A stretch of 24,111 nt of DNA from Gemmatimonadota bacterium (GCA_046758745.1 JBHIAV010000045.1:1-24111); one strand, 5' to 3'. Positions 1,808 through 24,111 are shown, counted from the first letter of the stretch. Numbers and translations are program-made. The notes: generated by a model from the sequence alone, not told the origin.

Positions 1808-3034
1808 ATGAGACGGCTTTCCCTCATCGCCGCGCTCTTCATCGGCGCGCTCACCGCCTGCGAAACCGATTCCGTCGGCCCCGTCGGTCCGAGCCCCGAG
1901 GGGATGCAGGCAGCCAGGGGCGGCAATGGCAAGGGCGACGGAGGGGGCGGAGGCGGTGGCAAGAAGAACAACTCCCCGCCGGTCGCCGATCCGGGCGGGC
2001 CCTACTCCGGTATCGAGGGCACGCCCGTGCTCTTCGACGGGTCGGGCTCCTCCGATCCCGATGGCCCGACTCCCAAGCTCGAATACGCGTGGGACTTCGG
2101 CGATGGCGCCACGGGGAGCGGAATGTCCCCGAGCCACGGCTACGCCGCCGAGGGCATCTACACGGTGACGCTGATCGTGACGGACCGAAAGGGTGGGAGC
2201 GGCCAACCGGCCACCACGACCGCCACCATCTCGGTTGCGCCGCCCGGCTCGGGGGTCGTGCTGGTAGGAGCAGGAGATATCGCCAGCTGCACCTCGAGCG
2301 GAGACGAGGCGACCGCGGCCCTTCTCGACGACATCGGCGGCACCGTGTTCACCGCCGGAGACAACGCGTACAACAGCGGGACGGACGCCGAGTTCGCCGA
2401 CTGCTACGCTCCCACGTGGGGACGGCACAGGTCCCGCACCCGGCCCTCCCCCGGCAATCACGACTACGGCACGGCGGGAGCGGCGGGGTATTTCGGCTAC
2501 TTCGGGGCGGCGGCGGGCGACCCGAACGAGGGCTACTACAGCTACGACCTCGGCGCCTGGCACATCCTGGCGCTGAACAGCAACATCGCGCGGGGCGTCG
2601 GCTCGGCCCAGGAGCAGTGGCTCCGGGCGGATCTCGCGGCGAGCAGCGCCTTGTGCACGCTCGCTTACTTCCACCATCCCCGCTTCACCTCGGGCAGTCA
2701 CGGCGATGACCCATCCATGCAGGCGCTCTGGCAGGCGCTATACGACCGGGGAGCCGACGTCGTCGTGTCCGGGCACGACCACGACTACGAGCGCTTCGCG
2801 CCCCAGACGCCGACCGGCGCGGCCGACCCCGCGAACGGGATCCGAGAGTTCGTGGCCGGGATCGGCGGCAAGAGCCTGCGGAGCTTCAAGATCCCGCGCC
2901 CGAACAGCGAGTTTCGCTACAACGCCACCTTCGGCGTTCTCAAGCTGACGCTGCGGGAGACCGGGTACTCGTGGGAACTCGTCCCCGTGGGCGCCGGTGG
3001 CTCTCCCGACGCCGGGAGCGCGTCCTGCCACTGA
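1808..3034 (+). CDS. Lipoprotein with PKD domain and calcineurin-like (purple acid phosphatase-type) metallophosphoesterase domain
   Basis: GGAGG (1797-1801) before ATG 1808; lipoprotein signal [18 protein letters not shown]; Gly-rich linker; PKD signature PVADPGGPY...[11 protein letters not shown]...YAWDFGDG...YTVTLIVTD; phosphoesterase motifs GDIA, GDNAY, GNHDY, HHP, GHDH. Confidence 0.9.
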
Positions 3035-4373: not shown

Positions 4374-4402
4374 CTGACACGTTTCATCTATCCAGGTATC
4401 AT
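4374..4402 (+). promoter_or_regulatory. Sigma70-type promoter for the xdh operon
   Basis: CTGACA (4374-4379), 17-nt spacer, TATCAT (4397-4402): 5/6 match at both boxes, in an AT-richer patch about 70 nt upstream of the GTG start. Confidence 0.65.
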
Positions 4403-4471
4403 CTGTTCCAGGAACTCCGCCCCGTTCACCGGAGCGGCGGACGAGGCGTCGGACCGGGAGAAGCACGGAAA

Positions 4472-7159
<2,688 letters not shown>

Positions 7160-7172
7160 GGCCCGGGGAGCA

Positions 7173-9344: not shown

Positions 9345-10757
9345 GTGCGCGCCCCGCGTAGACGTTTCACCAACCTGCGGATTCCTTCGGACGGAGACGG
9401 TACGGCCCCGGCGGAGATCCTCGTTATCGGCGGCCGGATCGCCGACGTCGGGCCTCCGAGCTCGGCGCCGGTCGAGGCGGACGAGGAGATCGTTGACCTG
9501 GGCGGTGGGCTGGTATTGCCCGGTGTGATCGATGTTCACGTGCACTTCGACGACCCGGGCTTTACACACCGCGAGAACTTCGAGACGGGCACGCGCGCCG
9601 CCGCAGCGGGCGGGGTTACATGCATCGTGGACATGCCCGGCACGTCGCTGCCGCCGGTGACTTCCGGCGCGAACCTGCGCGAGAAGCTGGAGGTGATCGC
9701 GCCCAAGGCGCACGTCGATTTCATGCTGTGGGGCGGCGTCTCCGGCAACGCGATCCAGGAGCCGGAGTGGCGTCGCCATCTGGAGGAAGTCGTCGAGCAG
9801 GGCGCGGCGTCGATCAAGGTCTACACGCTTTCCGGAATGGACACGTTCCGGGACCTCTCGGCCAGCCAGATCGGGAAGGTGCTGCGGGAGACACGGCGAC
9901 TCGGCGTCCCGGTGGGGGTGCACGCCGAGGACCGCGACATGGTGCATGCCCTCACCCGGCAGCTTCGGGAAGAAGGCCGGAACGATCCGCTCGCCTACGC
10001 GGCCTCCCGGCCTGCGTCAGCGGAGGTCGAGGCAGTCGAGGCGATGCGCGACCTGTGCCGGGAGACCGGCGCGAGGGTCCACATCGTCCACCTGGCAACG
10101 GGACGTGCCCTGGACGTGGTCAGCATCGCCCGTGGCGAGGGCCTTCCCCTGACGGCGGAGACCTGCCCGCATTTTCTCCAGTTTACGGCCGAGGATCTGG
10201 CGGCACAGGGTGCCCTCCTCAAGACCGCGCCGGTGGTGAAATCGGCGGCCGACCGGGATCGCCTGTGGCGAGGGCTCGCGAGCGGCGAGCTCGAGTTCGT
10301 GGCCACGGACCACGCGGCGGGGCAGTGGCCGGAGGAGAAGAACACCGGCTCCATCTGGACGGACTACGGCGGAGTTCCCGGGGTCGAGCTCTCACTTCCC
10401 TACCTGTTCTCGGAGGGGGTCCGCAAGGGACGGATCACCCTCGAGCGGCTCACCGAGGTCACGGCCTCCGCGCCTGCCCGCTTCCTCGGGATCGAGCACC
10501 GGAAGGGTCGGATCGCACCCGGGCTCGACGCGGACCTGACGGCGCTGGACGAAAACGAGACCTGGACGGTTCGCGGCGAGGCGCTCCACAACCTCAACCG
10601 GTACACGCCACTCGAAGGGATCGAGCTCACCGGTCGGGTGCAGGCGGTGTACCTTCGCGGCGAGCTCGTCTACCGGCGGGAGCCCGACGGCAGCGAGGTC
10701 TTCGGACCGGCGGGCTTCGGGGAGCGCATACGTCGGGAAACCAGGGTGGCGGTGTGA
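9345..10757 (+). CDS. Cyclic amidohydrolase, allantoinase (AllB)-like
   Basis: DVHVHFDDPG.THRENFETGTRAAAAGGVTCIVDMP, SIKVY (carboxylated Lys), HAE, HIVH, ETCPH, ATDHA, KGRIAPG.DAD. Confidence 0.85.
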   Translation: MRAPRRRFTNLRIPSDGDGTAPAEILVIGGRIADVGPPSSAPVEADEEIVDLGGGLVLPGVIDVHVHFDDPGFTHRENFETGTRAAAAGGVTCIVDMPGTSLPPVTSGANLREKLEVIAPKAHVDFMLWGGVSGNAIQEPEWRRHLEEVVEQGAASIKVYTLSGMDTFRDLSASQIGKVLRETRRLGVPVGVHAEDRDMVHALTRQLREEGRNDPLAYAASRPASAEVEAVEAMRDLCRETGARVHIVHLATGRALDVVSIARGEGLPLTAETCPHFLQFTAEDLAAQGALLKTAPVVKSAADRDRLWRGLASGELEFVATDHAAGQWPEEKNTGSIWTDYGGVPGVELSLPYLFSEGVRKGRITLERLTEVTASAPARFLGIEHRKGRIAPGLDADLTALDENETWTVRGEALHNLNRYTPLEGIELTGRVQAVYLRGELVYRREPDGSEVFGPAGFGERIRRETRVAV

Positions 10758-10767
10758 GAGAGGCTCG

Positions 10768-12141
10768 ATGAGCGACACTGTCCTGCTCGGAAACGGGGTG
10801 GTGGCCACCGGCGGACCCGATCCGCAGGTGATACCGGAGGGCGCGGTCGCGTGGCACGGGGAGCGGATCGTGGCCGTGGGCCGGGAGGATCAGCTGCTCG
10901 GGGAATGGCGCGACGCGCGGTACCTGGACGCGCGCGACGGCCTGATCCTTCCTGGCCTCGTCAACCTTCACCACCACTTCTACTCCGTGCTGGCGCGCGG
11001 CCTCGACCCCGCGGCGAGCATGAAAGACTTCACGCAGGTACTCGATCGCCTGTGGTGGAGGCTCGACCGCGCGCTCGACATCGAGGCGGTTCGCATCTCG
11101 GCCCTGCTCTCCGTGGCGGAGTGCGTGCGACAGGGCTGCACCACCGTGTTCGATCACCACGCGTCGCCCTCGTGCATCGACGGCAGCTTGGACGCGATCG
11201 CGGAGGCGGTCCAGGCGGGTGGCATCTCCGCCGCCCTGTGCTACGAGGTCACCGACCGCAACGGTCGCGAAGGAGCTGTCGCCGGGATCGAGGAGAACCT
11301 CCGCTTCCTGGCCGAACGCGAGGACGACCGCCGCATCCGCGGTGTGTTCGGGCTCCACGCCAGCTTCACGCTGAGGGACCAGACCCTCGCCGCCGTCGCC
11401 GAACGGCGGCCACCCGACACCGGCTGTCACATCCACGTGGCGGAGGATCCGATCGATGTCGAGGCCTCCATGCAGGCGTTCGGCGCCGGCCCCGTGCAGC
11501 GACTCCAGCGGTTCGGCCTGCTGGACGAGCGCGCGCTTCTGGCCCACGCGATCCACCTGGAGAGAGAAGACTACGAAGCGGCCGCGCGGGCCGGCGCCGT
11601 CCTGATCCACAACCCCGAGTCAAACGCGAACAACGGGGTCGGACGGCTGGACGTCTGCGAGGCGGCGAGCCTCGGATGCCTCGTCGGCTTGGGTACCGAC
11701 GGCATGTCGTCGGCCGTTCTTCGTGCGCTACGCTTCGCCTTCCTCACGCACCGCGGCGCGAGGCGAGATCCCGCCTCGGGCTTCGAGTTCCTGCCCGAGC
11801 TGCTGGCCAACAACGCGCTCGCGGCGCGGCGCTTCTTCCCGGAACCGCTACTGGGGGAACTCGCGCCGGGCGCCCCGGCCGACGTCATCGTCGTCGACGC
11901 GGCGCCTCCCACTCCGGTTTCGCCGGACAACCTTTTCGGGCACCTCGCCTACGGCGTGAGCGAGGCCCCCGTTCGGCACACGGTGGCCTACGGGCGGCTT
12001 CTCCTCGAGGACTTCCGCCACACCACCCTCGACCCCCAGGAGTTGGCGGCCCGGGCCCGGAAGCTCGCGCCGGGGCTCTGGCAACGCTTTCGCTCCCTTG
12101 GCTGGGGCACCAGCTTCCTCGGGAGTGACGCGCGCGGCTAG
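10768..12141 (+). CDS. ssnA: SsnA-like aminohydrolase (amidohydrolase superfamily)
   Basis: GLVNLHHHFYS.LARG, LWWRLDRALD, GCTTVFDHHASP, CYEVTDRNG, FGLHASFTL, HIHVAED, HNPESNANNGVG, LGTDG; GAGAGAGG SD before ATG 10768. Confidence 0.88.
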   Translation: MSDTVLLGNGVVATGGPDPQVIPEGAVAWHGERIVAVGREDQLLGEWRDARYLDARDGLILPGLVNLHHHFYSVLARGLDPAASMKDFTQVLDRLWWRLDRALDIEAVRISALLSVAECVRQGCTTVFDHHASPSCIDGSLDAIAEAVQAGGISAALCYEVTDRNGREGAVAGIEENLRFLAEREDDRRIRGVFGLHASFTLRDQTLAAVAERRPPDTGCHIHVAEDPIDVEASMQAFGAGPVQRLQRFGLLDERALLAHAIHLEREDYEAAARAGAVLIHNPESNANNGVGRLDVCEAASLGCLVGLGTDGMSSAVLRALRFAFLTHRGARRDPASGFEFLPELLANNALAARRFFPEPLLGELAPGAPADVIVVDAAPPTPVSPDNLFGHLAYGVSEAPVRHTVAYGRLLLEDFRHTTLDPQELAARARKLAPGLWQRFRSLGWGTSFLGSDARG

Positions 12142-12210
12142 GTCGGCGGCTGCACGGCCGGCCGCCCCACAGCCACACCAGCGCGTTCAACACAAGGAAG
12201 GAGTGCAGGC

Positions 12211-13701
12211 TTGACCCACGTGGTCGATGAGGAAGTACGCCAGCGAGCCGCGGCGAGGTGCCGGGCACGAGGGATACTGATCCCGACCTTCGCGCAGATG
12301 CGGGATCCGTCCGGTCTGCACCCGACCATCATCGAGGCCCTCGCCCGGGTCGACATGCAGGCGGTGGACCCGCTCAACCTCTTCCGGATCACCTGGCGCA
12401 ACGATCCGGAGTCAGGTCGTTTCGGGGAGGTGAACGCGCTCGAGCTGCCCGCGCAGCTGACGGGCGTCCCGGCCCGCATCGTGGGCCTCGTCGGGAAGTA
12501 CTTTCCCACCGGTGCTCACAAGGTAGGGGCCGCGTTCGGTTGCCTGGTGCCCCGCCTCGTCACCGGTGAGTTCGACCCATCCGTGAACCGCTCGGTGTGG
12601 CCGTCGACGGGGAACTATTGTCGGGGAGGCGCATTCGACAGCGCGCTGCTGGGCTGCCAGGCGGTGGCGATCCTGCCCGAGGAGATGAGTCGGGAGCGCT
12701 TCCGTTGGCTGGAAGAAATCGGGGCGGAGATCATCGAAACCCCCGGCGGCGAGAGCAACGTCAAGGAGATCTTCGACGTCTGCCGGGAGATCCGCCGGAC
12801 CCGGCCCGAGGCAGTGATCTTCAACCAGTTCGACGAGTTCGGCAACTACCTCTGGCATTATGGCGTGACCGGTCCGGCCGTCGAATCGGTCTTTCGCCGA
12901 ATCGCCGGTCCGCGAGACCGCTGCGCCGCCTGGGTGGGAGCCACCGGATCCGCAGGTACCCTCGCGGCGGGCGATCACCTCAAGCGACAATTCCCCGGCT
13001 GCCGCATCGCCGCCGCCGAGGCCCTCCAGTGTCCCACGCTGCTGATGGCGGGATTCGGCGACCACCGCATCGAGGGCATCGGGGACAAGCACATTCCGTG
13101 GATCCACAACGTGCGCAACACGGATGTGGTGACGGCCATCGACGACGAGGCGACGTTGCGTCTCCTCCGCCTGTTCAACGAGCCGGCCGGGCGGCCGCTG
13201 CTGGTAGATCGTGGCGTCCCCGAGGAGGTCGTCGCCCGTCTCCCACTGCTCGGCATCTCGAGCATCTGCAACGTGCTCGCCGCGATCAAGACGGCCCGCT
13301 ACCTGGAGCTCGACGAGCACGACGTCGTCTTCACCTCGTTCACCGACTCGGTGGAGCTCTATCGGACCCGCCTCGAGGAGCTCCGGACGGAACGCGGCCC
13401 TTACTCCGCCAGGTCAGCCGAGGTCGACTTCGAGCGGTACCTCCAGGGCGTCACCACGGACAACCTCCGGGAACTTCGCTACACGGACCGAAAAGCGATC
13501 CACAACCTCAAGTATTTCACTTGGGTGGAGCAACAGGGGAAGGCCGTGGAGGAGCTGAACGCTCTGTGGAGCCCCACCTTCTGGGAAGATCTCGCCGGAG
13601 AGCTCCCCGCGTGGGACGAAGCCATCGAGGCGTTCAACCGCGAGAGCGGCGCTTGGGACGCGGTACGGCATCGGGCCGCACAGGGGGCGAACGAGCAATG
13701 A
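12211..13701 (+). CDS. Extended fold-type II PLP-dependent enzyme (cysteine synthase/CBS-like), function unknown
   Basis: AAGGAAGGAG SD before TTG 12211; PTGAHKVG (PLP Lys), PSTGNY, TGSAGT phosphate loop, HRIEGIG, GISS; long N- and C-terminal extensions (496 aa). Confidence 0.85.
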   Translation: MTHVVDEEVRQRAAARCRARGILIPTFAQMRDPSGLHPTIIEALARVDMQAVDPLNLFRITWRNDPESGRFGEVNALELPAQLTGVPARIVGLVGKYFPTGAHKVGAAFGCLVPRLVTGEFDPSVNRSVWPSTGNYCRGGAFDSALLGCQAVAILPEEMSRERFRWLEEIGAEIIETPGGESNVKEIFDVCREIRRTRPEAVIFNQFDEFGNYLWHYGVTGPAVESVFRRIAGPRDRCAAWVGATGSAGTLAAGDHLKRQFPGCRIAAAEALQCPTLLMAGFGDHRIEGIGDKHIPWIHNVRNTDVVTAIDDEATLRLLRLFNEPAGRPLLVDRGVPEEVVARLPLLGISSICNVLAAIKTARYLELDEHDVVFTSFTDSVELYRTRLEELRTERGPYSARSAEVDFERYLQGVTTDNLRELRYTDRKAIHNLKYFTWVEQQGKAVEELNALWSPTFWEDLAGELPAWDEAIEAFNRESGAWDAVRHRAAQGANEQ

Positions 13702-14915
13702 GCGATGGTGCGGGACGCGCGGCTCTGGAGGACGCGCGACGCCACGAGGACGAGATCGTGCGTTTCCTGCGCGAGATGATCGCCATTCCGGCGGAGAGCC
13801 GTCGCGAGCGAGAGCGCTGCGAGCGGGTGCGGCGGGAGTACGAGAGCCTCGGGTTCGACGAGGTCTTCTATGACCGGCTCGGCAACGTAGTGGCGCGCCT
13901 CGGGGATGGTCCGCTCACCATACTGATGGACGGTCACATCGACTGCGTCGGCGTCGGCGACCCCAAAGCCTGGGATCACGACCCCTATGAAGGGAAGCTC
14001 GAGGACGGGAAGGTGTGGGGCCGCGGTGCAGTGGACGAGCTGCCCGCGATCGCCTGCATGGCCTACGGCGCCAAGCTGGCGCGCGATCGCGGCCTGTGGG
14101 GCGAGGTCACGCTGTACGTCACCGCCTCCGTGATGGAGGAGGAGTGCGACGGCTATTGCCTTCTGCACCTGATTGAGAAGGAGGGGATCCGGCCCCACGT
14201 CGTGGTGATCGGGGAGCCTACGGACCTCGGAGTCTGCCGGGGCCACCGCGGTCGGGTGGAGGCCACGATCTCGACGACGGGAGTATCGTCGCACGCTGCG
14301 CACCCCGAGCGCGGTGACAACGCGCTGTACAAGCTGGCCCCGATCATCTCGGATATCGAGGCTCTGAACGAACGGCTGCCCTCAGACGACTTCCTGGGCA
14401 AGGGAACCGTCGTGGTCTCCTTCGTAGAGTGCACCTCGCCCTCCCTCAACGCCGTTCCCGACAGCGGCCGCATTTACATCGACCGCCGGCTGACGGCCGG
14501 CGAGACGGTCGAGAGCGCGCTGGCGGAGCTACGGTTGCTTCCCCACCTGGGCGATGCCGAGGTGGAGCTCCTCGCGTACGACGAGGTGAGCTGGCGGGGC
14601 GAGCGCGCCCGGCAGGAGAAATACTTTCCGACCTGGGTGCTGCCGGAGACGCACGCCCTGGTTCAGGGCGTCACAGCCGCTGCAGGCGCCGTGCTCGGCG
14701 CGCCGCCCGAGGTCTCCCGGTGGGCGTTCTCCACCAACGGGGTCGCGACCATGGGTCGTCACGGCATACCGACCGTGGGATTCGCGCCCGGCAAGGAAGA
14801 GCTCTCGCACACCACCGGTGAGTGGGTCGCCGTCGAGGATCTGGTGCGAGCCACGGCCGTGTACAGCCTGATCCCGGACTCCCTAGCCGGACGCAAGGGA
14901 GAGCTCATGGGATGA
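13698..14915 (+). CDS. ygeY: YgeY-family M20 metallo-hydrolase (ureido/carbamoyl hydrolase)
   Basis: ATGA overlap with the upstream stop; DGHID, GRGAVD, VMEEECDG, EPT, RGHRGR, H...PERGDNA, FLGKGT, NAVPD, DRRLTAGE, YFPTW, WAFSTNGV, GFAPGKEELSH. The ORF-track start at 12597 is an overextension. Confidence 0.9.
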   Translation: MSDGAGRAALEDARRHEDEIVRFLREMIAIPAESRRERERCERVRREYESLGFDEVFYDRLGNVVARLGDGPLTILMDGHIDCVGVGDPKAWDHDPYEGKLEDGKVWGRGAVDELPAIACMAYGAKLARDRGLWGEVTLYVTASVMEEECDGYCLLHLIEKEGIRPHVVVIGEPTDLGVCRGHRGRVEATISTTGVSSHAAHPERGDNALYKLAPIISDIEALNERLPSDDFLGKGTVVVSFVECTSPSLNAVPDSGRIYIDRRLTAGETVESALAELRLLPHLGDAEVELLAYDEVSWRGERARQEKYFPTWVLPETHALVQGVTAAAGAVLGAPPEVSRWAFSTNGVATMGRHGIPTVGFAPGKEELSHTTGEWVAVEDLVRATAVYSLIPDSLAGRKGELMG

Positions 14916-15886
14916 GCGTCGACCTGAGGGGACGGGATCTCATCACGACGCAGGACTGGACGATGGAGGAGCTGGAGACGTTGCTCCAGCTCGCGGACCG
15001 GCTCAAGAAGGCTAGAGCGGCCGGAGAGCGGACGCCGCTCCTGCCGGCCAAGACGTTGTACATGATCTTCTTCGATGCCTCGACCCGCACCCGGAACTCA
15101 TTCGAGACGGGGATCACGCAGCTCGGGGGGCACGGGATCTACCTGTCGCCGGACCATATGCAGATCAGCCATGGCGAGAGCGTCCGCGATACGGCCAAGG
15201 TTCTTTCCCGGTACGGCGAAGGCATCGCCATCCGGCACTGCACGTATGGAGAGGGAAACGCCTACCTGCGTGAAATGGCCGAGCATGCCAGCATACCGGT
15301 CCTCAACATGCAGTGCGACGTCTACCACCCGTGCCAGATCCTGGCCGATTACATGACCATCCGCGAGCGATTCGGCGACACGCGCGGGCTCAAGCTGGGC
15401 GTCGCCTGGACCAGCGCGCCCAAGTACGTGCGGCCGCTCTCCGTTCCGCAGAGCCTCATCCTCATGATGCCCCGTTTCGGCATGGACGTGACGCTCGCCT
15501 ACCCGCCGGAGTTCCGCCTCATGCCGGAGATCGAGGAGCAGGCGCAGGCGAACGCGGACCAGGCCGGAGCGCGCTTCGAAACAACGCAGCAGTTCGAGTA
15601 CGCGTTCGAGGACTCCGATGTAGTGATCCCCAAGTCGTGGGGCCCGCTGGTGACCACGCAGGACGTCGAGGAAGGGCTATCGCTCATCGAGCGGTATCCG
15701 GACTGGCGGTGCGACGAGGAACGCATGGCGCTCGGAAAGGAGCACCTCATCTACATGCACCCGCTTCCCGCCGATCGGGGGCGTGAGGTGACGGATGGGG
15801 TGATCGACGGGCCGCAGTCCGCGGTATTCGACGAAGCCGAGAATCGGCTCCACGTGCAGAAGGCCCTCATGGCCCTCACGATGTGA
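14912..15886 (+). CDS. Carbamoyltransferase (ATCase/OTCase superfamily), compact YgeW-like
   Basis: ATGA overlap at 14912-14915; STRTR, HPCQ, HPLP; YgeW-like segments QISHGE, GNAYLRE, NMQCDVYHP, W..AP.Y..PLSVPQ, RFGMDVTLA.P, PKSW; OTCase-like tail EVTDGVIDGPQSAVFDEAENRLH. Confidence 0.88.
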   Translation: MSVDLRGRDLITTQDWTMEELETLLQLADRLKKARAAGERTPLLPAKTLYMIFFDASTRTRNSFETGITQLGGHGIYLSPDHMQISHGESVRDTAKVLSRYGEGIAIRHCTYGEGNAYLREMAEHASIPVLNMQCDVYHPCQILADYMTIRERFGDTRGLKLGVAWTSAPKYVRPLSVPQSLILMMPRFGMDVTLAYPPEFRLMPEIEEQAQANADQAGARFETTQQFEYAFEDSDVVIPKSWGPLVTTQDVEEGLSLIERYPDWRCDEERMALGKEHLIYMHPLPADRGREVTDGVIDGPQSAVFDEAENRLHVQKALMALTM

Positions 15887-17121
15887 GCAGCTTCCGGCTT
15901 CGCTGTATCGAGTGCGGGAGGGAATACGCCGAGCAGGGGACGCGGCTGGTGTGCGACGACTGCTCCGCTCTACAGGAGCCCGGCGCACCGACGCGGGGCG
16001 TGCTGGAGGTGCGGCTGGACGACCTGCCCGCGGTCTGGCCCTCCGCGGCCCCCTCGAGCGCGGGGTTCCTGACGGCTTTTCTGCCGCTCGCGTCCCCCGG
16101 CTCGCTGCCCCCGCTGGCAGTCGGAGGAACCCCGTTGCTGGACGTTCCCGAGCTCCGGAAAGCGCTCGATCTCCCGCGTCTCACCCTGAAGGACGACACC
16201 CGAAACCCGAGTGGCTCCACCAAGGACCGGGCATCCCTTCTGGTGGTGGCGAAGGCCCGGGAGTACGGCTACGAGACGGTCGCGGCCGCTTCGACCGGCA
16301 ACGCAGCGGCCGCTCTGGCCGCCGTGGGCGCCGCCGCCGGGATCCGCACCGTCGTGTTCGTCCCCGCCTTTGCCCCCGAGGCGAAGCTCGTGCAGATCCT
16401 CAGCTACGGCGCCATGGTCCTTCCGGTGGAGGGAAGCTACGACGAGGCCTTCGAGCTCTGCCTGGCGGCCTGCGATGCGTTCGAATGGTACAACCGCAAC
16501 ACCGCCCTGAATCCGTTCACCATCGAAGGAAAGAAGACGGCCGCGCTCGAGATCGCCGCTGCCATGACTCCGGAATCTCCGGACGCCGTCATCGTGCCGA
16601 CGGGTGACGGGGTCATCCTGGCCGGAGTGGCCAAGGGGTTCGCGGACCTGGTGCTCGCCGGTCTGATCGAACGAGCTCCCCGCCTCATCGCCGTGCAGCC
16701 GGAAGGATCGGGTGCCATCGTCCGGGCGCTTCGCGATGGGGCCGATACGATCACGCCGGTGCCCGACGCAGTCAGCATTGCCGACAGCCTCACCGTTCAG
16801 GCTCCCCGCAACGCCATCCTGTGCCTCAGGCGAATCAGGGAGTCGGGGGGCGGGGGGGTGGCCGTGCCCGACGAAGCGATCCTGGAAGCCGCCCTCTACC
16901 TGGCGCGGCACACGGGAGTGTTCGCGGAGCCGGCCGGCGCGGCATCGCTCGCCGGTCTGCACGCGGCGCTCGCCGAGGGCCTGGTGGAGCGGAACGAGAG
17001 GATCGTCCTTCTCGTTACCGGCACCGGCCTGAAGGACGTTCCGGCGGCAGCGCGCGCCGTCCGCCGTCCGGAACCGATCCGCCCGGAGCTCGATGCCGTG
17101 GGGGAGCGGCTTGGTCTGTGA
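15883..17121 (+). CDS. Threonine synthase-like PLP enzyme (fold type II) with N-terminal Zn ribbon
   Basis: GTGA overlap; CIECG...CDDC; GGTPL, NPSGSTKDR (PLP Lys), ASTGN, NPFTIEGKKT, VPTGDG, SIADSL, EPAGA, TGTGLKD. Confidence 0.88.
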   Translation: MSSFRLRCIECGREYAEQGTRLVCDDCSALQEPGAPTRGVLEVRLDDLPAVWPSAAPSSAGFLTAFLPLASPGSLPPLAVGGTPLLDVPELRKALDLPRLTLKDDTRNPSGSTKDRASLLVVAKAREYGYETVAAASTGNAAAALAAVGAAAGIRTVVFVPAFAPEAKLVQILSYGAMVLPVEGSYDEAFELCLAACDAFEWYNRNTALNPFTIEGKKTAALEIAAAMTPESPDAVIVPTGDGVILAGVAKGFADLVLAGLIERAPRLIAVQPEGSGAIVRALRDGADTITPVPDAVSIADSLTVQAPRNAILCLRRIRESGGGGVAVPDEAILEAALYLARHTGVFAEPAGAASLAGLHAALAEGLVERNERIVLLVTGTGLKDVPAAARAVRRPEPIRPELDAVGERLGL

Positions 17122-17295: not shown

Positions 17296-18132
17296 TCAGC
17301 CCACGGCCCGGCCTGCCGGCGCCCGCGGTGCGGGCGAGTGCTCTCGCCTGTACCAGCGGAAGAAGATGGCCGTGATGACGGACCAGTGGACGACCATCCC
17401 TCCGACCTTCATCACCACGCCGGCCGTCTGATGGTCCCCGCGCGCCGTGATCCCGGCGACCCGCGGCGCGAGCTCGTAGACCCCGTAGAGGGGGTAGTCA
17501 CCGAATACGAGGAAGAGAGAGATCGCCCCCATGATGATGGTGTTGCCGAACAGGTATCCCATCCTGGCCAGATCATGAAAGCGCGGCCGCTCGGGGACCG
17601 GGCACACGATCGGCCACCACAGGACCAGCCCTCCGGTGAACCACAGGGCGTCGATGGCGAAGGAGCCCGGCTGGGAGACCATCAGGTGATCCACCACCGA
17701 GGGGAGGTGCGTGAGCGCCAGAATGGCGTTGAAGGCCACAAGGGCCGCCACGGGCTGCGTCAGGAGGCGGACGAAGCGGATCCACCGCTTCCGGGCGGCC
17801 AGTCGCGCGAAGGCATTCGGCGGAAGCCCCGCGAGGAGGAGCGGCGGAACGACGAGCCCGACGAGCAGGAACTGAACCATGTGCAGGCTGACCAAGTAGC
17901 CGCCGCCCAGCGCCCCGAGAGGCCAGTCGAGCGCCACCCACAGAAGCAGTGCGCCGAGACGGAAGAGGCCGCGTCTGCGGCGGCCGGCGGCCCCGTCGGT
18001 CCCCCTGGCCTCTCTATCGAGCGTTTGATGGGCGAGGATGAGCAGCGCGACGACCGCCCACACGCCGGGGTAGGGCCGCCACACCCACTCCCACGCCCCC
18101 CCCTGAGCGGAGCACCACCAGCGAACGCTCAA
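17296..18132 (-). CDS. ctaG: Cytochrome c oxidase assembly factor CtaG (Caa3_CtaG family)
   Basis: TTG start with GGGAGAG SD; multi-TM protein with ALDWPLG.LG.GYLVSLHMVQFLL..LVVPPLLL.G, TH.P, WWP, PLY..Y, D.QTAGVVMK.GG. Confidence 0.88.
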   Translation of the reverse strand: MSVRWWCSAQGGAWEWVWRPYPGVWAVVALLILAHQTLDREARGTDGAAGRRRRGLFRLGALLLWVALDWPLGALGGGYLVSLHMVQFLLVGLVVPPLLLAGLPPNAFARLAARKRWIRFVRLLTQPVAALVAFNAILALTHLPSVVDHLMVSQPGSFAIDALWFTGGLVLWWPIVCPVPERPRFHDLARMGYLFGNTIIMGAISLFLVFGDYPLYGVYELAPRVAGITARGDHQTAGVVMKVGGMVVHWSVITAIFFRWYRREHSPAPRAPAGRAVG

Positions 18133-18187
18133 CAGCCGCTCTCCCGAGCGGAGCGCTGCCAGCGAACGCGCAACTCACCCGACCCCC

Positions 18188-18422
18188 TCACGGCGCGGAG
18201 AGGTTCGATCCCGCCAGGATCGGGAGATCGTGCGCCCAGTCCCTCTGGCGCGTGCCGAACGTGTAGGCGACCCGATGGCCGCCGTCGCGCGTGAACGCGA
18301 TGAGGCGCGCGCCGCTCCGAGCCGGAGCCGCACCCCGCCAGCGCGATGAGAGCGCACGCCGGCAGCGCCACAGAGGCGGCCGCACCCATCTGCCCTGTTC
18401 GGCGGCACACGACTCGCTGCAT
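18188..18422 (-). pseudogene. Probable SCO-family copper chaperone remnant with a large out-of-frame internal deletion
   Basis: A purine-rich SD and ATG 18422 give a lipoprotein signal (...ACALIALAGCGSGSE). From about 18313 a different frame reads GARLIAFTRDGGHRVAYTFGTRQRDWAHDLPIL..., which resembles a SCO C-terminus, with stop at 18188. It lies directly upstream of ctaG. No CxxxC or His ligands remain. Confidence 0.6.
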
Positions 18423-18647
18423 GACCCCCTCTTCCCCTCTCCCTAAGGAGATCGGCCCAAATCGGTCCTGAAGGATAGCGCCTATCCGAGGGCGGGAGCG
18501 AGTCTCGTCGGTCCGATTGCAGGGCCCCCCGGCGGCTTCTTGAGCCTTGTCTCCTCGCTGGCCGGTCGATAGGGTAGGGACGGAATGAGGCCGGCCCGCG
18601 GCTTTCCTGCGGCGCCGGCTTTTTCGGCGGTGGACAGGGAAGATTTC

Positions 18648-20294
18648 ATGCAAGCAGAGCGAGGCCGCCCGCCCCGCTGTCGCCGCGCATCCTGCGAGTC
18701 GTCGGATCTAAGGGGAGGAAATGGGCACTGCGGTCGGGCCGGTGGGGGGCGGCGGTCGGGCCTTCGCCCTTCTGCGGCGGGATTCTCCCTGCTCGCCTCT
18801 CTCTTCCTTCTCCTCGGCCTCGTGAGGGCGACGTTCGGACAATCCTCCGAGGTCCCGCAGGAAGTCCCCGCCGCTCTTCCCGCGCCGACGCCTTCGCCCA
18901 AGCTCCCGCCTTCGCTCCGGATGCCGCCTCCAGCCCAGCTCCCGGCTTCGCTCGATCCGGCGCCTTCGGCCCAGCCTTCGCGTCCGTCCGGGGCGGCGCG
19001 TCCGCCCAGGGGTGCGCCGGCCGACCCGGAAGCCGATGCCGCGGTGCAGGAAGACTCGATCGTCGTGATCGAGCGGGGGACCCCCGCCGTCAACGGCTGG
19101 GACGTGGCGGAGCTCCCGTTCAGGCTCGTCACCCTCCCCATCCTGATCATCGGGAACGGCAGCAAGCTTGCATTCGGCGGCAAGGGCTACCTGATCCCGA
19201 ACGTCACCCACCTGTTCGGTCAGATCCAGGCGAGAGGCGTCCACCCCTTGATCCACCGGCAGGGAGCAAGCTCCAGCATTGGGGGTGGCCTTCTTCTCGG
19301 CGTCCCGCCCACGCGCGAAGGCCCGTGGGCCCACGTCCTCGGTGGCGCCACGATCAAGGAGTACTGGCTGCTGGGCGCCCGCCTCGGGTACGGCTCGGAG
19401 TACCCGGAGCCGCGCCCGCGGCTCGGGATACGGCGCGGCGGCCCCTTCACGGTCCAGGGGTACGGATTCCGGGCGCACCGGGCACAGGACAAGTTCTACG
19501 GCCCGGGCCGGGACAGCCGGAACGAGAACCGCTCCGACTACGACCGAGATCAGTACGAGGCGGGAGCGGTGGTCATCCTGCGTCCCCTCCCCAACTCGGA
19601 ACTCCGGTTCTTCGCCCGGTGGACGCAGGACGATATCGGGGCGGGGGACGCCGATGATCTGCCGGACGTCGATTCCACCTTCGCCGCCAGCGAGATTCCG
19701 GGCTTCGGGGAGCGCTGGCGGTACGTCTCGTTCGGGACCACGGTGGGGTGGCGCGTGGGGCGCCTGCACACGATGCAGAGGCACGACCGGTGGCTCGAGG
19801 CGAGCTACACGTGGAACGACAGCCGGAGCGACGGGGCCGCCGACTACGGGCGCCTGGAGCTGTCGGCCGGGATCGAGCTCCCGTTCGACCGGAAGCGGGA
19901 GAGCCTTGCTTTCGCGCTTCGCTACGTGGCGCTCCGGCCGAGCGGCGAAGGGGCGATTCCCTTCTACCGCCTGGCATCCCTGGGGGGCAGCCACAGCCTG
20001 GCCTCCTACCACACGTATCGATTCGCCGATCAGGAATCCATCCTCGGTCAGGCCGAGTATCGATACCGTGTGTGGAGCGAGGTGCGTGACGAGTTCTGGC
20101 TCGACGGGATCCTCTTTCTGTACGAGGGGATGGTCGCCGAGAGCCTGAGCGACGAGTTCCGCTTCGAGCGACTGAAGGAGAGCTACGGCTTCGGTCTCGC
20201 CTTCATAACGCCGGAGTCGGAGGTCGCCCGGATCACCTTCAACTGGGGAGACGACGGGTTCCTGGGTCGTTTCTCCTTCCTGTTCGGCCTGTGA
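18648..20294 (+). CDS. Omp85/BamA/TamA-like outer-membrane beta-barrel protein without obvious POTRA domains (start uncertain: 18585 or 18648)
   Basis: Signal-like h-region FSLLASLFLLLGLVRATFG; Pro/Ala-rich linker; amphipathic strands; FYGPG..S, IPFY.L.SLGG....Y...RF.D...L.QAEYRY, SYGFGL and terminal FSFLFGL are typical of surface-antigen barrels. Confidence 0.72.
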   Translation: MQAERGRPPRCRRASCESSDLRGGNGHCGRAGGGRRSGLRPSAAGFSLLASLFLLLGLVRATFGQSSEVPQEVPAALPAPTPSPKLPPSLRMPPPAQLPASLDPAPSAQPSRPSGAARPPRGAPADPEADAAVQEDSIVVIERGTPAVNGWDVAELPFRLVTLPILIIGNGSKLAFGGKGYLIPNVTHLFGQIQARGVHPLIHRQGASSSIGGGLLLGVPPTREGPWAHVLGGATIKEYWLLGARLGYGSEYPEPRPRLGIRRGGPFTVQGYGFRAHRAQDKFYGPGRDSRNENRSDYDRDQYEAGAVVILRPLPNSELRFFARWTQDDIGAGDADDLPDVDSTFAASEIPGFGERWRYVSFGTTVGWRVGRLHTMQRHDRWLEASYTWNDSRSDGAADYGRLELSAGIELPFDRKRESLAFALRYVALRPSGEGAIPFYRLASLGGSHSLASYHTYRFADQESILGQAEYRYRVWSEVRDEFWLDGILFLYEGMVAESLSDEFRFERLKESYGFGLAFITPESEVARITFNWGDDGFLGRFSFLFGL

Positions 20295-22111
20295 TGCGGC
20301 GAGCGCTCGGTTCCGGCCCCGTCGCCAGGTGGGGGGAGAGTCGCCTCTCGCTCGCCGGCCCGGCCCGGATCGCGGGCCCCCTTCCGAAGCGACTCAAGCC
20401 GCTCGCGGCCCTGCTCATGGCGACCGCGCTGGCCGGGTGCTCGTCGAACCGCGTCGTGGTGCGCCAGGGCTCGAGTCCGGCGCCGGAGCCCCGGCCGCTC
20501 CCCGACGCCCTGGCGGAGAGGGACCCGAGTGTCCTCGGCGACTTCCTCGAGCACTCCGTCCTCCGACCCGGCCTTCACACCTTCAACCTGCCGTTCACGC
20601 TGAAGCGCTGGGTGGGCTACCGCACCGAGGCGTACAACGTGACGGCCGAGGACGACGTGTCCGACCGGGCGTGGTTCGTCCACCGCAATGCCCGTCACCG
20701 GATGTCCCCGGAGGCGGTGGCCAGCGGCCCCATGCCCGGCGGAGCGCCCGACACGAGCGAAGCCCTGACGATCATCCGCGCTAAGGCCGTCGGGATCACG
20801 CCGGGCTTCACGATCCGGGACCGGAACGGAGCGGTCTTCCAGGTGAAGTTCGACCCGCCCGGCTACCCGGAGATGTCGAGCGCCGCCGAGGTGATCAGCG
20901 GCCGCCTCTTCCATGCAGCCGGGTACCACGTGCCCGCGACCTACATCGTGGCCCTCGATCCGTTGAAGCTCGAGGTGGCGCCCGACGTCACCTACCTCGA
21001 CAAGCTCGGACGGGAACATCCCTTTACCCAGCAACGGGTGAACGAGCTCCTGGGCCGGGTGGCGCGGCTCCCCGACGGCCGCGTCCGGGCGGTGGCCAGC
21101 AGGTTTCTGGAGGGCACGAACATCGGCCCCTTCTCCTTCGACGGTACGCGGCGCGACGATCCGGCCGACACGATCCCCCACCAGCACCGCCGGGAGCTGA
21201 GGGGCCTGTACGTCATGGCCGCGTGGCTCAACCACGTCGATATCCGCCAGCACAACACCCTGGACATGGTGGTGGAAGAGAACGGGCGCCGCTTCGTCCG
21301 GCACCATCTGATCGACTTCGGCGCCTCACTCGGAAGCGGCAGCATCCAGCCCAACTTCCCGCGGGACGGCGTGGAGCACGACGTGGACCTGACCGACATC
21401 TTCGCCCGCATCCTCACCGCGAACATCTACTCGACTCGATGGGAGCGGTACGACGGCGGGGTCAAATATCCATCCGTGGGGTTCTACACGTCGGATCTCT
21501 TCGACCCGGGGAGCTGGACGGCGGACTATCCGAACCCGGCCTTCTACGAACGGACGGCGCGCGACGGCTACTGGGGCGCCAAGCTCGTGGGGAGCTTCAG
21601 CGAAGAGCAGATCCGGGCCGCCGTGGCGGCCGGTCAGCTGAGCGATCCGGCCGCGGCGGAGTACCTGACGGGCGAGATCCTCAAGCGGCAGGAGATGACC
21701 CTGCGCTACTGGTTCCTGCGCGCCACACCGCTCGAGGAGCTCGCCGTCGCGGGCGGGCCCGACGCACCCTCCCTCTCCTTCCGTGATCTGGCGGCAGCGC
21801 ACGGCTACGTGCGCGCCGGTGAACGCGCGTACGAGGTCCGCTTCGAGTTCCCGGCCGTCCACCTGAAGTCCAGGGAAACCGCTCGACTGCGGCTGGATGC
21901 GAACGGGAGGGGGAGGCTCGAGCTCCCCTTCCCCGCTGGAGCCGACCGGGAGTTCTGGGACGAGCTCCGCCGGCGTCCGGCCCGCAAGCGCATCGCGAAG
22001 CTCGAGGTCAAGGCGATCCCCGGGCCGGGCGACCCCGGGGCGCGCTCGGTTCGCATCTACCTCCTGCCGAGCCGCAAGACCGGATACCGAATCGTCGGGC
22101 GCGCGTATTAG
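20291..22111 (+). CDS. Lipoprotein with atypical protein-kinase-like catalytic domain (HipA/PI3K/CotH-like motif set)
   Basis: GTGATG overlap with the upstream stop; lipobox ALAGC (Cys codon 20438); K186 in FQVKFD, E200 in SAAEV, D317-x4-N322 in WLNHVDIRQHN, D342-F-G in LIDFGASLG. Confidence 0.7.
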   Translation: MMRRALGSGPVARWGESRLSLAGPARIAGPLPKRLKPLAALLMATALAGCSSNRVVVRQGSSPAPEPRPLPDALAERDPSVLGDFLEHSVLRPGLHTFNLPFTLKRWVGYRTEAYNVTAEDDVSDRAWFVHRNARHRMSPEAVASGPMPGGAPDTSEALTIIRAKAVGITPGFTIRDRNGAVFQVKFDPPGYPEMSSAAEVISGRLFHAAGYHVPATYIVALDPLKLEVAPDVTYLDKLGREHPFTQQRVNELLGRVARLPDGRVRAVASRFLEGTNIGPFSFDGTRRDDPADTIPHQHRRELRGLYVMAAWLNHVDIRQHNTLDMVVEENGRRFVRHHLIDFGASLGSGSIQPNFPRDGVEHDVDLTDIFARILTANIYSTRWERYDGGVKYPSVGFYTSDLFDPGSWTADYPNPAFYERTARDGYWGAKLVGSFSEEQIRAAVAAGQLSDPAAAEYLTGEILKRQEMTLRYWFLRATPLEELAVAGGPDAPSLSFRDLAAAHGYVRAGERAYEVRFEFPAVHLKSRETARLRLDANGRGRLELPFPAGADREFWDELRRRPARKRIAKLEVKAIPGPGDPGARSVRIYLLPSRKTGYRIVGRAY

Positions 22112-22217
22112 CTGCGGCACCGCGGGGGCGACCGGCCGTCCCGCCCCGGCAGGCGCGAAGCGACGGCCCGCTCCCTCCGGTCGCCCACCTGCGAGTCAGG
22201 GCCCGTGACCGGCCCCT

Positions 22218-23795
22218 TTACGCGGCGCGCCGGTCCTCGCCGACGCAGGGCGCCCGACCCGCCTCAACCAGCCGCCTGTACTCCCTGCCGATGAGAGCGG
22301 CGGTCACCAGCGCGAGCGCGACGATCGCCACGTTCACCACCGCGAAGTGGCGCGTTCCCAACGCCAGATAGGTGGTCCCCACGAAGACCAGACCGGCCGA
22401 TGACACGTCTCCCGCCCGAACGAAGAAGGTGTCGATCGCTTGCTTGGCCTTGTACTTCTGCTCGCGCGTGCAGGGGAGGAAGATCACGTTCCGCACCGTG
22501 TTCTGCAGGGAATAGTCCGTGGCGTTCTCCACCGTCTTCGCCCAGCGCACGTAGCCGAGGACCGGCAGGGATGCGATGAGGAGGTTGGAGCCGAGGGCGA
22601 TCAGCGGCAGGATGAGGAGCGAGGCGCGCATGCCCAGATACTTGATCACACGCGAGACGAGGAAGAGCTGGATCAGGAGCCCGAGCGTGTTCACCCCGCC
22701 GTAAAAGCCCGCCAAGAAGCTCCCGATGTACTCCTTTTCGGAACCGGCCATGAGCGCTCCCCTGGATACGGCTTGCGCGGCGGTGTTCTCCACCAGCTTG
22801 TCGAGGATATACCCTCCGTTGGTGTTCACCCAGGTCAGAAAGAGCATCAGCAGACCGATGAGAAGGAGGTACCGGCAACGCAGTACCGTCCGGTAGGGGT
22901 TCTCGCGGCTCCCCCCCAGCTCGACCTCCTCGAGGCTCGCCTCCAGCGTCGCCTTCCGGCGGGCCTCCGGCTCGGGGGGCGCCTCGCCCTTCTCGAGGGC
23001 CCTTCGCACCTCGGCCAGCGAGATCTCGCCGGTGATCGCCTTCCGCACGTCGTCGATCCGCATCTCGCCGGTGATCGCCTTACGCACCTCGGCGAGCGGG
23101 ATCTCCTGCGAGGCGGCGGGCATCGCCCCGCTGGTGAGCACGTTCGGGAGGTCAGCCTCCGTCCGCCGCCGCTCGCGGGCGTCCACGTAGTTCGTGACCC
23201 ACAGGCTGGCGACGAGGATGCCCCCGGCGACCAGCATCGGCGGATAAACGCCCGCCAGGTCGATGACGCCCCCCGTGCTGAAGCTCCCGGCCACGGCGCC
23301 CAGCGACGCGCCGACGGCCACGATCGGGAAGAGCCGCTCCCCTTCCTCGTTGCTGTAGACGTCGTTGGCGAACGCCCAGAGCTGGGCCACCACCATCACG
23401 TTGAAGATCCCCGTCCACAGAAAGAACGCGACCCCCTGGACGAGCAGCGAGACGGGGAGCTGCCCGATGAAGAAGAAGACGACGAGGCAGGCTGCGAAGA
23501 AGAACGTCACCACGTTGATCAGCCGGCGGCGCGGCATCCGATTGGCCAGCGCTCCGTAGGCGGGAACGACGAAGAGGAGGAGCAGGACGAGCCCGGCCGA
23601 CAGGTAGCTCTTCAGCTCCGCGCCGCCGCCCGTGATAATGAGGGAGTCCCGCACCGGCTTGATGAAGGAATACGCCGCGAGGATGAGGAAGAGGTTGATG
23701 GCGAGAAGGAGCGCCGTGGCCCCCTCGCCCGACCGCACATCGGCGAACAGGCGAAGGAAGCGGTCGATGGGGCTCAGGCGCCGCACTCTGTGCAC
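22218..23795 (-). CDS. NTT/TLC (Npt1/Npt2, ATP/ADP translocase-like) MFS nucleotide transporter
   Basis: AAGAGAGGAG SD before GTG 23795; about 12 TM; AYSFIKPVRDSL, FFLW.GIFN......WAFANDVY..EEGERLFP, ENATDYSLQNT, REQKYKAKQAIDTFFVRAGD. Confidence 0.85.
   Translation of the reverse strand: MHRVRRLSPIDRFLRLFADVRSGEGATALLLAINLFLILAAYSFIKPVRDSLIITGGGAELKSYLSAGLVLLLLFVVPAYGALANRMPRRRLINVVTFFFAACLVVFFFIGQLPVSLLVQGVAFFLWTGIFNVMVVAQLWAFANDVYSNEEGERLFPIVAVGASLGAVAGSFSTGGVIDLAGVYPPMLVAGGILVASLWVTNYVDARERRRTEADLPNVLTSGAMPAASQEIPLAEVRKAITGEMRIDDVRKAITGEISLAEVRRALEKGEAPPEPEARRKATLEASLEEVELGGSRENPYRTVLRCRYLLLIGLLMLFLTWVNTNGGYILDKLVENTAAQAVSRGALMAGSEKEYIGSFLAGFYGGVNTLGLLIQLFLVSRVIKYLGMRASLLILPLIALGSNLLIASLPVLGYVRWAKTVENATDYSLQNTVRNVIFLPCTREQKYKAKQAIDTFFVRAGDVSSAGLVFVGTTYLALGTRHFAVVNVAIVALALVTAALIGREYRRLVEAGRAPCVGEDRRAA
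22989..23105 (-). repeat. 39-bp / 13-aa triple repeat in the central loop of the transporter
   Basis: EIPLAEVRKAITG / EMRIDDVRKAITG / EISLAEVRRALEK; the 20-mer atctcgccggtgatcgcctt occurs exactly at 23023 and 23062. Confidence 0.85.
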
Positions 23796-23981
23796 GAGGG
23801 CTCCTCTCTTCTCGACCCTCAGTCGTGCCTTCCGCGGGCCACCTAGCGAAGCAGCCGCTCCCGATCCGCCGTCGCCCGCGCCGACGGGCGCGTTTCGCCA
23901 TCAGCACGGCGATGAGCAGAACGGCGCACAGCACGACCCCGACGCGCCGCGGGCGAAGCAGCGCTCGCCACGGAAGAGGCA

Positions 23982-23998
23982 TGCAGACTTTTTGCCAG
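23982..23998 (-). promoter_or_regulatory. Candidate sigma54 (-24/-12) promoter for the NTT gene
   Basis: The minus strand reads CTGGCAAAAAGTCTGCA: TGGCA...TGCA with exact GG-N10-GC spacing, about 185 nt upstream of GTG 23795. Confidence 0.45.
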
Positions 23999-24111
23999 GG
24001 GAGCGGAAGCCGGCCGTCCGCAGGATACGGGTACGGGCGCTCGCCCGCGACAGGGAGGCGAGTCGACGGCGTAGGCAGGAGCGCCGTTCCGGCGGAGGCG
24101 GGGGCGATCGC

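Follow-up and report, generated by a model that had tools for sequence, protein, structure and literature searches.

This locus raises the question of what a protein kinase-like active site is doing on a protein that leaves the cytoplasm. The window, that is, the whole stretch of 24,111 nucleotides that was analyzed (Gemmatimonadota bacterium, GCA_046758745.1, JBHIAV010000045.1:1-24111), carries at positions 20291..22111 of the plus strand an open reading frame (ORF) that a preliminary description had read as a lipoprotein with an atypical kinase active site. We conclude with high confidence that this gene encodes an exported lipoprotein of kinase fold with an intact catalytic set, and that it is paired with an outer-membrane barrel of the Omp85 family.

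Is the fold that of a kinase? An AlphaFold2 model of the whole lipoprotein, made with 31 homologues, reached a predicted local distance difference test score (pLDDT) of 85.6 and a predicted template modelling score (pTM) of 0.86, and a model of the core (residues 105-478, 56 trimmed homologues) reached 93.1 and 0.93. A Foldseek comparison of the core model with the PDB gave 17 matches at E<=1e-3, and all 35 rows shown were kinases or kinase-fold proteins. The top match was CtkA of H. pylori (3akl_C; E 4.2e-5, probability 1.00), with a template modelling (TM) score of 0.41 when normalized by query and 0.53 by target. Next came Golgi casein kinase/Fam20, actin-fragmin kinase, PI4KIIalpha, PINK1, MK2, haspin and CotH, and the full-length model retrieved the same families. 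The nearest named clusters in the ESM Atlas were Fam20C (0.80), HipA_2 (0.78), LepB_N (0.78) and PI3_PI4_kinase (0.77), all below 0.9 and taken as leads only. The predicted structure is kinase-like, as had been claimed from the motifs. According to the secondary structure assigned to the model by DSSP, these motifs also lie in the proposed order and as in a kinase: KAVGITPGF (residues 165-173) forms the loop between strands 159-164 and 172-176, Lys186 is in strand 182-187 (beta3), Glu200 is in helix 195-210, HVDIRQHN comes after helix 301-313 and DFG comes after strand 333-340. The C-terminal beta-rich accessory domain that had been foreseen is real as well, with strands between residues 481 and 605 and partial Foldseek matches to FN3 and cytokine-receptor domains.

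The features of the lipoprotein gene are listed here, with residues numbered from the GTG at 20291 (residue n begins at 20291+3(n-1)) and residue counts taken from 82 homologues (80 fetched loci and the window, one locus having two copies).

20291..20440, plus strand: signal peptide and lipobox LAG/C50 (Cys50 codon 20438-20440)
20441..20620, plus strand: N-terminal linker and two helices, residues 51-110, with contacts in the complex model to the N-terminal strand and helix of the barrel (pLDDT 51-75)
20603..21724, plus strand: protein-kinase-like core including a C-terminal helical bundle, residues 105-478 (from AlphaFold2, Foldseek and hhalign)
20783..20809, plus strand: Gly-containing beta1-beta2 hairpin KAVGITPGF, residues 165-173 (K165 80/82, G168 80/82, P171 78/82)
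20846..20848, plus strand: beta3 Lys186 (82/82)
20888..20890, plus strand: alphaC Glu200 (Glu 39/82, Gly 31/82)
21149..21202, plus strand: family-specific charged motif R287-x-D-D-x-x-D293-x-x-x-H297-x-H-R-R301-E-L-R304, before the helix of the catalytic loop
21233..21256, plus strand: catalytic loop H315-V-D317-I-R-Q-H-N322 (D317 82/82, N322 82/82, H315 78/82)
21314..21322, plus strand: DFG, D342 F343 G344 (D 81/82, F 81/82; third position G in 45 and A in 34 of 82)
21731..22105, plus strand: C-terminal beta-sandwich, residues 481-605 (pLDDT about 90)

Translation of the window confirmed the ORF and the positions first given for K186, E200, D317 (codon 21239-21241), N322 (codon 21254-21256) and DFG. 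The proposed set K/E/DxxxxN/DFG held in its lysine, its catalytic Asp and Asn and the first two residues of DFG, and only in part in the glutamate. Residue E194, at least 90% conserved in the 31-sequence alignment, could be the stand-in for Glu200. In the charged motif, R287, D293, H297, R301 and R304 are present in all 82 homologues, D290 in 81 and D289 in 80, and D325 and H338 are likewise essentially invariant. Short motifs found in a single sequence could be due to chance; these stand above it because they are conserved and lie in a kinase fold.

Concerning the start of the gene, the ORF encodes 606 amino acids from the GTG at 20291 and 605 from an ATG at 20294; the ATG is the more likely start, and an identical database protein record has 605 amino acids. 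The upstream ORF (18585..20294) ends in a TGA that shares one base with the ATG and four with the GTG, and because stop and start codons overlap we regard the two genes as translationally coupled. The GC content of the window is 65-73%. A scan of positions 17900-24111 for promoters and terminators was uninformative, as it returned no promoter-like site and two terminator-like sites against 2.0 expected.

The N-terminus shows a K/R-rich n-region, the hydrophobic segment PLAALLMATALAG and the lipobox LAG-C50, which satisfies the pattern [LVI][ASTVI][GAS]C. Cys50 is invariant in the 31-sequence alignment and present in 73 of the 82 ORF translations, the misses including truncated or mis-started ORFs. 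No Pfam or NCBIfam model reached its cut-off on the lipoprotein, and the only NCBIfam match was a weak one to a lipoprotein signal (LPAM_MltD and YgdI/YgdR were the weak signal models matched at the N-terminus in Pfam and NCBIfam). The protein had been described as secreted; its invariant Cys50 supports export, and the word is better replaced by lipid-anchored and docked to an Omp85 barrel.

What, then, is the partner? The preliminary description had dealt with the lipoprotein alone and missed the barrel gene, the TLC/NTT gene on the other side and the phosphoesterases of related loci. The barrel is encoded as follows.

18585..20294, plus strand: POTRA-less Omp85-family outer-membrane barrel (longest ORF; Pfam PF01103 in homologues)

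This ORF is probably over-extended, with the true start downstream of 18585. Between the signal peptide and the conserved N-terminal strand, at residues ~95-150, it has a Pro-rich low-complexity linker that is absent from all the aligned homologues shown. The window barrel scored 19.6 bits against PF01103, below the 24-bit cut-off, and 39 of the 42 aligned homologues matched this model, the best with E 1.7e-25. No POTRA family was found at E<=0.01 in any of the 42, and most have only about 100 amino acids ahead of the barrel domain, on which grounds the barrel resembles the noNterm class. The alignment also contains the loop-6-type motif IPFYxLxxLGGxxxLRGYxxGRFRD and a C-terminal strand with a C-terminal aromatic residue.

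Loci for comparison were taken from one-genome-per-species contigs, where 546 of 599 pattern matches encode relatives; the best 80 were kept and make 81 loci with the window. Of these, 68 have more than 1500 nt of sequence ahead of the kinase gene, and in 67 of the 68 its immediate upstream neighbour, in the same orientation, is the barrel gene; the intergenic gaps cluster around 0-13 nt. The one exception (L008) is a truncated second copy. A barrel-kinase fusion was apparent in P0122, an ENA record of 1123 amino acids; we read it as a frameshifted call in GC-rich DNA, since it matches first the barrel and then the kinase only in patches, with Arg/Pro-rich stretches between them. P0122 was the only protein returned by a search for longer relatives (1062-3030 amino acids), which is weak evidence against fused forms. 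According to the sections consulted of PMC11358297, POTRA-less barrel genes followed by a lipoprotein gene also occur among the noNterm Omp85 genes of Leptospira. However, the domains of the Leptospira lipoproteins are DUF1566 or Big/integrin, and the discussion there treats these proteins as adhesins; none is a kinase, and the word kinase occurs 0 times in that text.

Do the two proteins bind? Barrel residues 150-569 and lipoprotein residues 51-606 were modelled together, each with its own alignment, along with three controls. The interface score ipSAE was 0.67, 0.60 and 0.68 for the pair versus 0.00 for each of the three controls. For calibration, 58 of 80 solved complexes attained this mark, as did 2 of 110 mismatched pairs; these counts are only rough here, because we supplied our own alignments. 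Between runs, at least 85% of the contacts are shared, and the partner pLDDT is 84 or higher. The model thus supports a large and specific interface between barrel and lipoprotein. On the barrel side the predicted interface comprises the N-terminal strand and helix (residues 158-209) and the turns 435-439 and 492-510; on the lipoprotein side it comprises residues 51-60, which follow the lipidated Cys immediately, the N-terminal helices and strand (80-121), residues 356-388 beyond the DFG and residues 564-605 of the beta-sandwich. By strand count from the loop-6 motif, both barrel turns would face the periplasm, where any Omp85 barrel also has its N-terminus, and the model would therefore place the kinase under the outer membrane. 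H297, H299 and the post-DFG region lie near the barrel turns in the model, a placement compatible with the barrel, one of its clients, or a lipid or glycan of the membrane as the substrate.

The same evidence bears on the possibility that the kinase is displayed on the cell surface, the POTRA-less barrel being its dedicated translocon (type V-like or Slam-like), with substrates outside or on neighbouring cells and with extracellular nucleotide. The gene order is that of the Leptospira noNterm Omp85 genes, for which a role in lipoprotein flipping or export is discussed, and Omp85/TpsB relatives export passengers (sections consulted of PMC11358297). CtkA, Fam20C and CotH, the structurally closest proteins, also act outside the producing cytoplasm. 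However, the modelled interface (174 contacts) is on the N-terminal extension of the barrel and on turns 435-439 and 492-510, which would be periplasmic, and the segment right after Cys50 is predicted to pair with the N-terminal strand of the barrel. An acidic motif after the Cys marks surface lipoproteins in Bacteroidota, and no acidic export motif follows Cys50. An argument against transport through noNterm barrels is also made in the consulted part of PMC11358297. We consider surface display unlikely, and favour a kinase held by the barrel on the periplasmic face of the outer membrane.

Which known kinases are related to the lipoprotein? The only relatives detectable by sequence are HipA_2 (PF20613) and HipA (PF07804), which share with it the G-x-x-P hairpin, (V/I)KF, AE in alphaC, WL...D-x4-N and LID(F/H)G. 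The HipA_2 model matched residues 160-252 at E 0.0024, below threshold (17.6 bits versus a cut-off of 27), and among the 31 homologues there were sub-threshold matches to HipA_2 in seven (E<=1, best 0.0011) and to HipA_C in four. For an hhalign comparison with the core profile we used 15 bona fide HipA_2 proteins encoded in genomes of this phylum. The alignment covered 218 columns (E 1.5e-4, probability 51.9%), with the N-lobe and DFG in register and the catalytic loop mis-registered. It pairs K186 with K39, invariant in HipA_2, E200 with E53, and G168-P171 with G23-P26; the corresponding motif pairs are AK..GxxPGF/RE.GGSLPA, (I/V)KF/VKF, AAEVI/VAELI and YLIDFGxxLG/WLIDHGAAL, and the C-terminal helices of both families are aligned too. 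In our own reading by eye, WLNHxDxxxxNxLD may correspond to WLDALVxNPDRTxRNPNLL with D-x4-N in register. HipA_2 proteins were found in 16 of 151 sampled genomes of the phylum, at other places, as ORFs of ~250-330 amino acids, and none was found in this genome. Unlike the lipoprotein, they have no lipobox at their starts in the 15-protein alignment; the lipoprotein family adds a signal peptide, the beta-sandwich and an insert of ~100 amino acids (residues 222-300) with the invariant R-x-DD-x-x-D-x3-H-x-HRR-x-x-R.

CtkA (JHP940 of H. pylori; 3akj/3akk/3akl) is the best structural match of the kinase core. Its chains of ~280 amino acids differ from the lipoprotein, however, in that they have no lipobox, N-terminal docking region, helical bundle or beta-sandwich, and HMMER gave no sequence match between the two. 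The HipA_2 profile matched no PDB chain, so that CtkA could not be tied to HipA_2 by sequence here either. According to the abstract of PMC5536186, CtkA is a Ser/Thr kinase of bacterial origin whose site of action lies beyond the cytoplasm of the producer; its gene is on an integrative and conjugative element, linked to a type IV secretion system and not to an Omp85 barrel. Fam20C/Golgi casein kinase, Fam20B and CotH show kinase-like fold matches (E 1.9e-4 to 5e-3) and also work outside the cytosol, but with TM-scores of 0.26-0.38, 8-12% identity, no sequence relation and other accessory domains. Fam20 is moreover eukaryotic and has its ATP supplied in the Golgi lumen. The lipoprotein is therefore a distant relative of HipA_2, HipA and CtkA and a member of neither Pfam family.

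How widespread is the family? There were 3912 relatives at E<=1e-3 among 8000 candidates scored. The preliminary description had expected the gene to be annotated only as hypothetical; among the 120 relatives listed, every name given by the source was indeed hypothetical protein, and none had a precomputed Pfam domain. An exhaustive profile search gave 3756 clusters at 50% identity with E<=1e-3, 2622 at E<=1e-10 and 1300 at E<=1e-30, nearly all of ~530-590 amino acids with the core beginning at residue ~70-100. The loci carry at least eight phylum-level labels and come from Gemmatimonadota, Ignavibacteria, Cytophagia/Bacteroidota, Calditrichia, Zixibacteriota, Latescibacterota and KSB1, and further from Acidobacteriota, Aminicenantes, Krumholzibacteriia, Poribacteria, Marinimicrobia and Eisenbacteria. 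The best relatives are proteins of Gemmatimonadota metagenome-assembled genomes with 50-65% identity. The assembly itself (3.08 Mb, 130 contigs, 87% complete) has one copy of the kinase-fold gene. The runs listed as containing the stretch were four of DNA, all from a single study with the label hydrothermal vent metagenome, and two of them may be its source; no RNA run was listed, which says nothing about expression either way. Full-text searches of open-access papers and of bioRxiv turned up no account of the kinase-fold lipoprotein family, of its pairing with Omp85 or of any connection between NTT carriers and a kinase that is exported. The kinase fold itself is known already; as far as searched, neither the family nor its lipid anchor, its partner barrel or its gene surroundings have been published.

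What else belongs to the locus? The gene on the other side of the lipoprotein gene is the following.

22218..23795, minus strand: homologue of TLC/NTT-family nucleotide transporters (NTT; major facilitator superfamily fold), convergent with the lipoprotein gene and 106 nt from its end

Its product matched Pfam TLC (PF03219) with 46.6 bits, above the cut-off of 21, and it scored 38.5 bits with TIGR00769 (ATP/ADP exchangers) against a cut-off of 387.2. It and its relatives are thus like the NTT/TLC transporters, including those fused to HEAT repeats (NTT-HEAT), as they match Pfam TLC above cut-off and some carry HEAT_2, but it differs from the characterized ATP/ADP exchangers, being far under the equivalog score. 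At residues ~225-300, apparently between its halves, the protein has a charged central insert with the internal near-repeat EVRKAITGEMRIDDVRKAITGEISLAEVRRAL, possibly a regulatory loop; a weak GvpG-like match was seen at residues 260-290 (E 0.18).

All ORFs within 6.5 kb of the kinase gene were clustered in the 81 loci and representatives were compared with Pfam models. Apart from the pair itself, just two families turn up repeatedly in different phyla, the TLC/NTT carriers and exported metallophosphoesterases. TLC-like genes occur in 35 of the 81 loci, the window included, and some are fused to HEAT_2 repeats; in seven loci the gene follows the kinase gene directly on the same strand at 80 nt or less. 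Exported calcineurin-like metallophosphoesterases occur in 24 of the 81, as counted with a local hidden Markov model; single-linkage clustering had overcounted them (26 loci, with 7 of 10 tested members matching Metallophos). They flank the pair directly, many have lipoboxes, and some carry PhoD or purple-acid-phosphatase signatures. One or the other family is present in 48 of the 81 loci and both are present in 11. In Ignavibacteria, Zixibacteria and Calditrichia the order on one strand is barrel, kinase, phosphoesterase, NTT, NTT-HEAT. Within the 3.08 Mb of this genome, TLC-like genes are found at three sites, and by our own arithmetic ~1-2% of random 15-kb windows would be expected to hold one. 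None of 14 control genomes had a TLC match. Of 151 sampled genomes of the phylum, 17 had the kinase core and 20 a TLC match, the latter being found in 9 of the 17 with the kinase versus 11 of the 134 without it, where related genomes are not independent; in five of the nine genomes holding both, the two genes are within 7 kb. The linkage of the pair to NTT carriers and exported phosphoesterases is non-random. The consulted part of PMC5381601 reports that NTT and NTT-HEAT genes occur in free-living bacteria, where their function is unknown; the words periplasm and export occur 0 times each in the text of that paper, and no link to an exported kinase is made.

Other families recur only in subgroups of loci and were not assigned to the system: Pkinase, UbiE-type methyltransferase, amine oxidase, histidine kinase, EamA, bPH_2, HAD, LytB, aminotransferase V and pyridine-nucleotide disulphide oxidoreductase. 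In seven Gemmatimonadota loci (L009, L018, L025, L041, L052, L059 and L080), a Ser/Thr protein kinase gene of cytoplasmic type (in L018:650-2299, Pfam Pkinase E 6e-44) and an NTT-HEAT gene lie upstream of the pair on the same strand, possibly with a regulatory link to it.

Elsewhere in the window, the product of the ORF at 1739-3034 (plus strand) has a PKD domain (PKD_4 E 3.5e-23) and, after it, a calcineurin-like metallophosphoesterase (Metallophos E 7.5e-9). It is ~15.5 kb upstream of the barrel gene and of the same enzyme class as those of the 24 loci. A run at 9345-17121 (plus strand) with two amidohydrolases, an M20 peptidase, an aspartate/ornithine carbamoyltransferase and PLP-dependent (PALP) enzymes, among which the PALP ORF 12211-13701 overlaps, resembles a cluster for the catabolism of amino acids or ureides and has no apparent relation to the kinase pair. 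The caa3-type cytochrome oxidase assembly factor CtaG (17296-18132, minus strand; E 1.7e-41) is divergent from the barrel gene, and a PEBP-family protein (66-656, minus strand; E 9.2e-47) stands at the window start. Two large ORFs overlap on opposite strands, 4388-7279 (minus, 963 amino acids) and 4472-7159 (plus, 895 amino acids), of which the minus ORF gave no Pfam match at E<=0.001.

How could these parts work together? We give a probability of roughly 55% to a reading in which the pair is a periplasm-facing atypical kinase complex anchored in the outer membrane, with NTT supply and phosphatase opposition in many lineages. A lipid-anchored kinase of the HipA_2/CtkA type, with the Lys, D-x4-N and DFG set, would be made together with a POTRA-less Omp85 barrel, and both would form a stable complex by docking on the N-terminal extension and two turns of the barrel, as modelled. 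The catalytic domain would be suspended beneath the outer membrane, on its inner face, and move phosphate from a nucleotide to an envelope substrate, which may be a protein, a lipid or a glycan. In many lineages ATP would be delivered across the inner membrane by the adjoining TLC/NTT carrier, which would also bring ADP back, and the exported metallophosphoesterase encoded next to the pair would undo the modification or remove products. The parts of this reading are not equally firm. We lean slightly towards an active phosphotransferase that faces the periplasm; that it is fed with ATP by the NTT we propose only tentatively. Equally speculative is a complete ATP-fed, reversible phospho-cycle of the periplasm, in which the NTT would export ATP and retake ADP, the barrel-anchored kinase would mark the substrate, and metallophosphoesterases or PAP2 phosphatases would erase the mark. 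The export direction would be possible because antiport chemistry allows it. The characterized NTTs are exchangers that import nucleotides, in parasites (sections consulted of PMC5381601); ATP export by an ATP-rich cell is our own extrapolation.

Several observations weigh against this reading. Glu200 is at least 90% conserved in the 31-sequence alignment but is found in only 39 of the wider set of 82, where Gly is found in 31. The Foldseek TM-scores of the core (0.41-0.53) are moderate and the root-mean-square deviation is high; the protein is therefore a divergent member of the kinase fold. HMMER searches of all PDB sequences with the single protein and with the 31-sequence and core profiles gave no meaningful match and no link to a solved structure, only stray matches to Lhca6 (E 0.61), AbxO (E 2.6) and, driven by repeats, designed armadillo proteins. 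The hhalign probability with HipA_2 was only 52%, with the catalytic loop out of register. The complex is a model and its periplasmic side is our own reading of the strand order. In 8 of the 17 kinase-positive genomes (95-97% complete) no TLC match was found at E<=1e-5, and 46 of the 81 loci have no TLC gene nearby; for these reasons the NTT is not an obligatory part. The periplasm is generally regarded as lacking ATP, and no NTT is known to export ATP. Finally, a kinase fold can carry other chemistry or none.

The neighbouring genes could also be read as a scavenging route for nucleotides or organophosphates, in which the lipoprotein would bind and capture nucleotide at the outer membrane without phosphorylating anything, the barrel would be the entry channel, the phosphoesterase would trim and the NTT would import. 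This would suit the exported metallophosphoesterases that flank the pair, some of PhoD or purple-acid-phosphatase type, and the habitat label of hydrothermal vent metagenome, to which we give little weight. Import is also the direction of all characterized NTTs (sections consulted of PMC5381601). Yet Asp317, Asn322 and Asp342 are invariant, which goes beyond residues for binding and is not expected of a mere binder, Omp85 barrels are not generally known as solute channels, and half of the kinase-positive genomes have no detectable NTT. Scavenging is therefore improbable.

The absence of POTRA domains suggests another role, in which the lipoprotein would be a pseudokinase scaffold that replaces the missing POTRA in outer-membrane assembly, its cleft being a relic or a regulatory nucleotide sensor. 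In the model, the N-terminal extension of the POTRA-less barrel is the main docking site, and Fam20A, a pseudokinase, is among the Foldseek matches. BamA-type barrels also work with lipoproteins (sections consulted of PMC11358297). However, the catalytic Asp, Asn and Asp and the Lys are kept in 81-82 of the 82 homologues across many phyla, as is typical of active enzymes, and we regard the scaffold as a little less probable still than scavenging. A HipA-type toxin of a toxin-antitoxin or defence module, hinted at by the weak HipA_2 and HipA_C matches, was rejected as hardly credible because the protein has a lipoprotein signal peptide with a conserved Cys, its upstream partner is the Omp85 barrel (67/68 loci) and not a HipB-like regulator, the genuine HipA_2 proteins of the phylum are of ~250-330 amino acids and encoded elsewhere, and PADLOC models gave no match to the kinase, barrel or TLC protein at E<=0.01.

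The periplasm and the outer membrane are taught as being free of ATP, and the known envelope modifications use other donors. If a barrel-anchored kinase acts as proposed, an envelope protein, lipid or glycan would be reversibly phosphorylated in a compartment that, according to textbooks, is ATP-free. A large family with an intact kinase site on an exported lipoprotein, together with its barrel and with carrier and phosphatase genes, would make extracytoplasmic phosphorylation in bacteria directly testable. It would also offer a first functional handle on two orphan groups, the Omp85 barrels without POTRA domains and the NTT or NTT-HEAT carriers found in free-living bacteria. Should the kinase-fold protein be inactive, its pair with the barrel would still represent a new kind of Omp85-lipoprotein complex.

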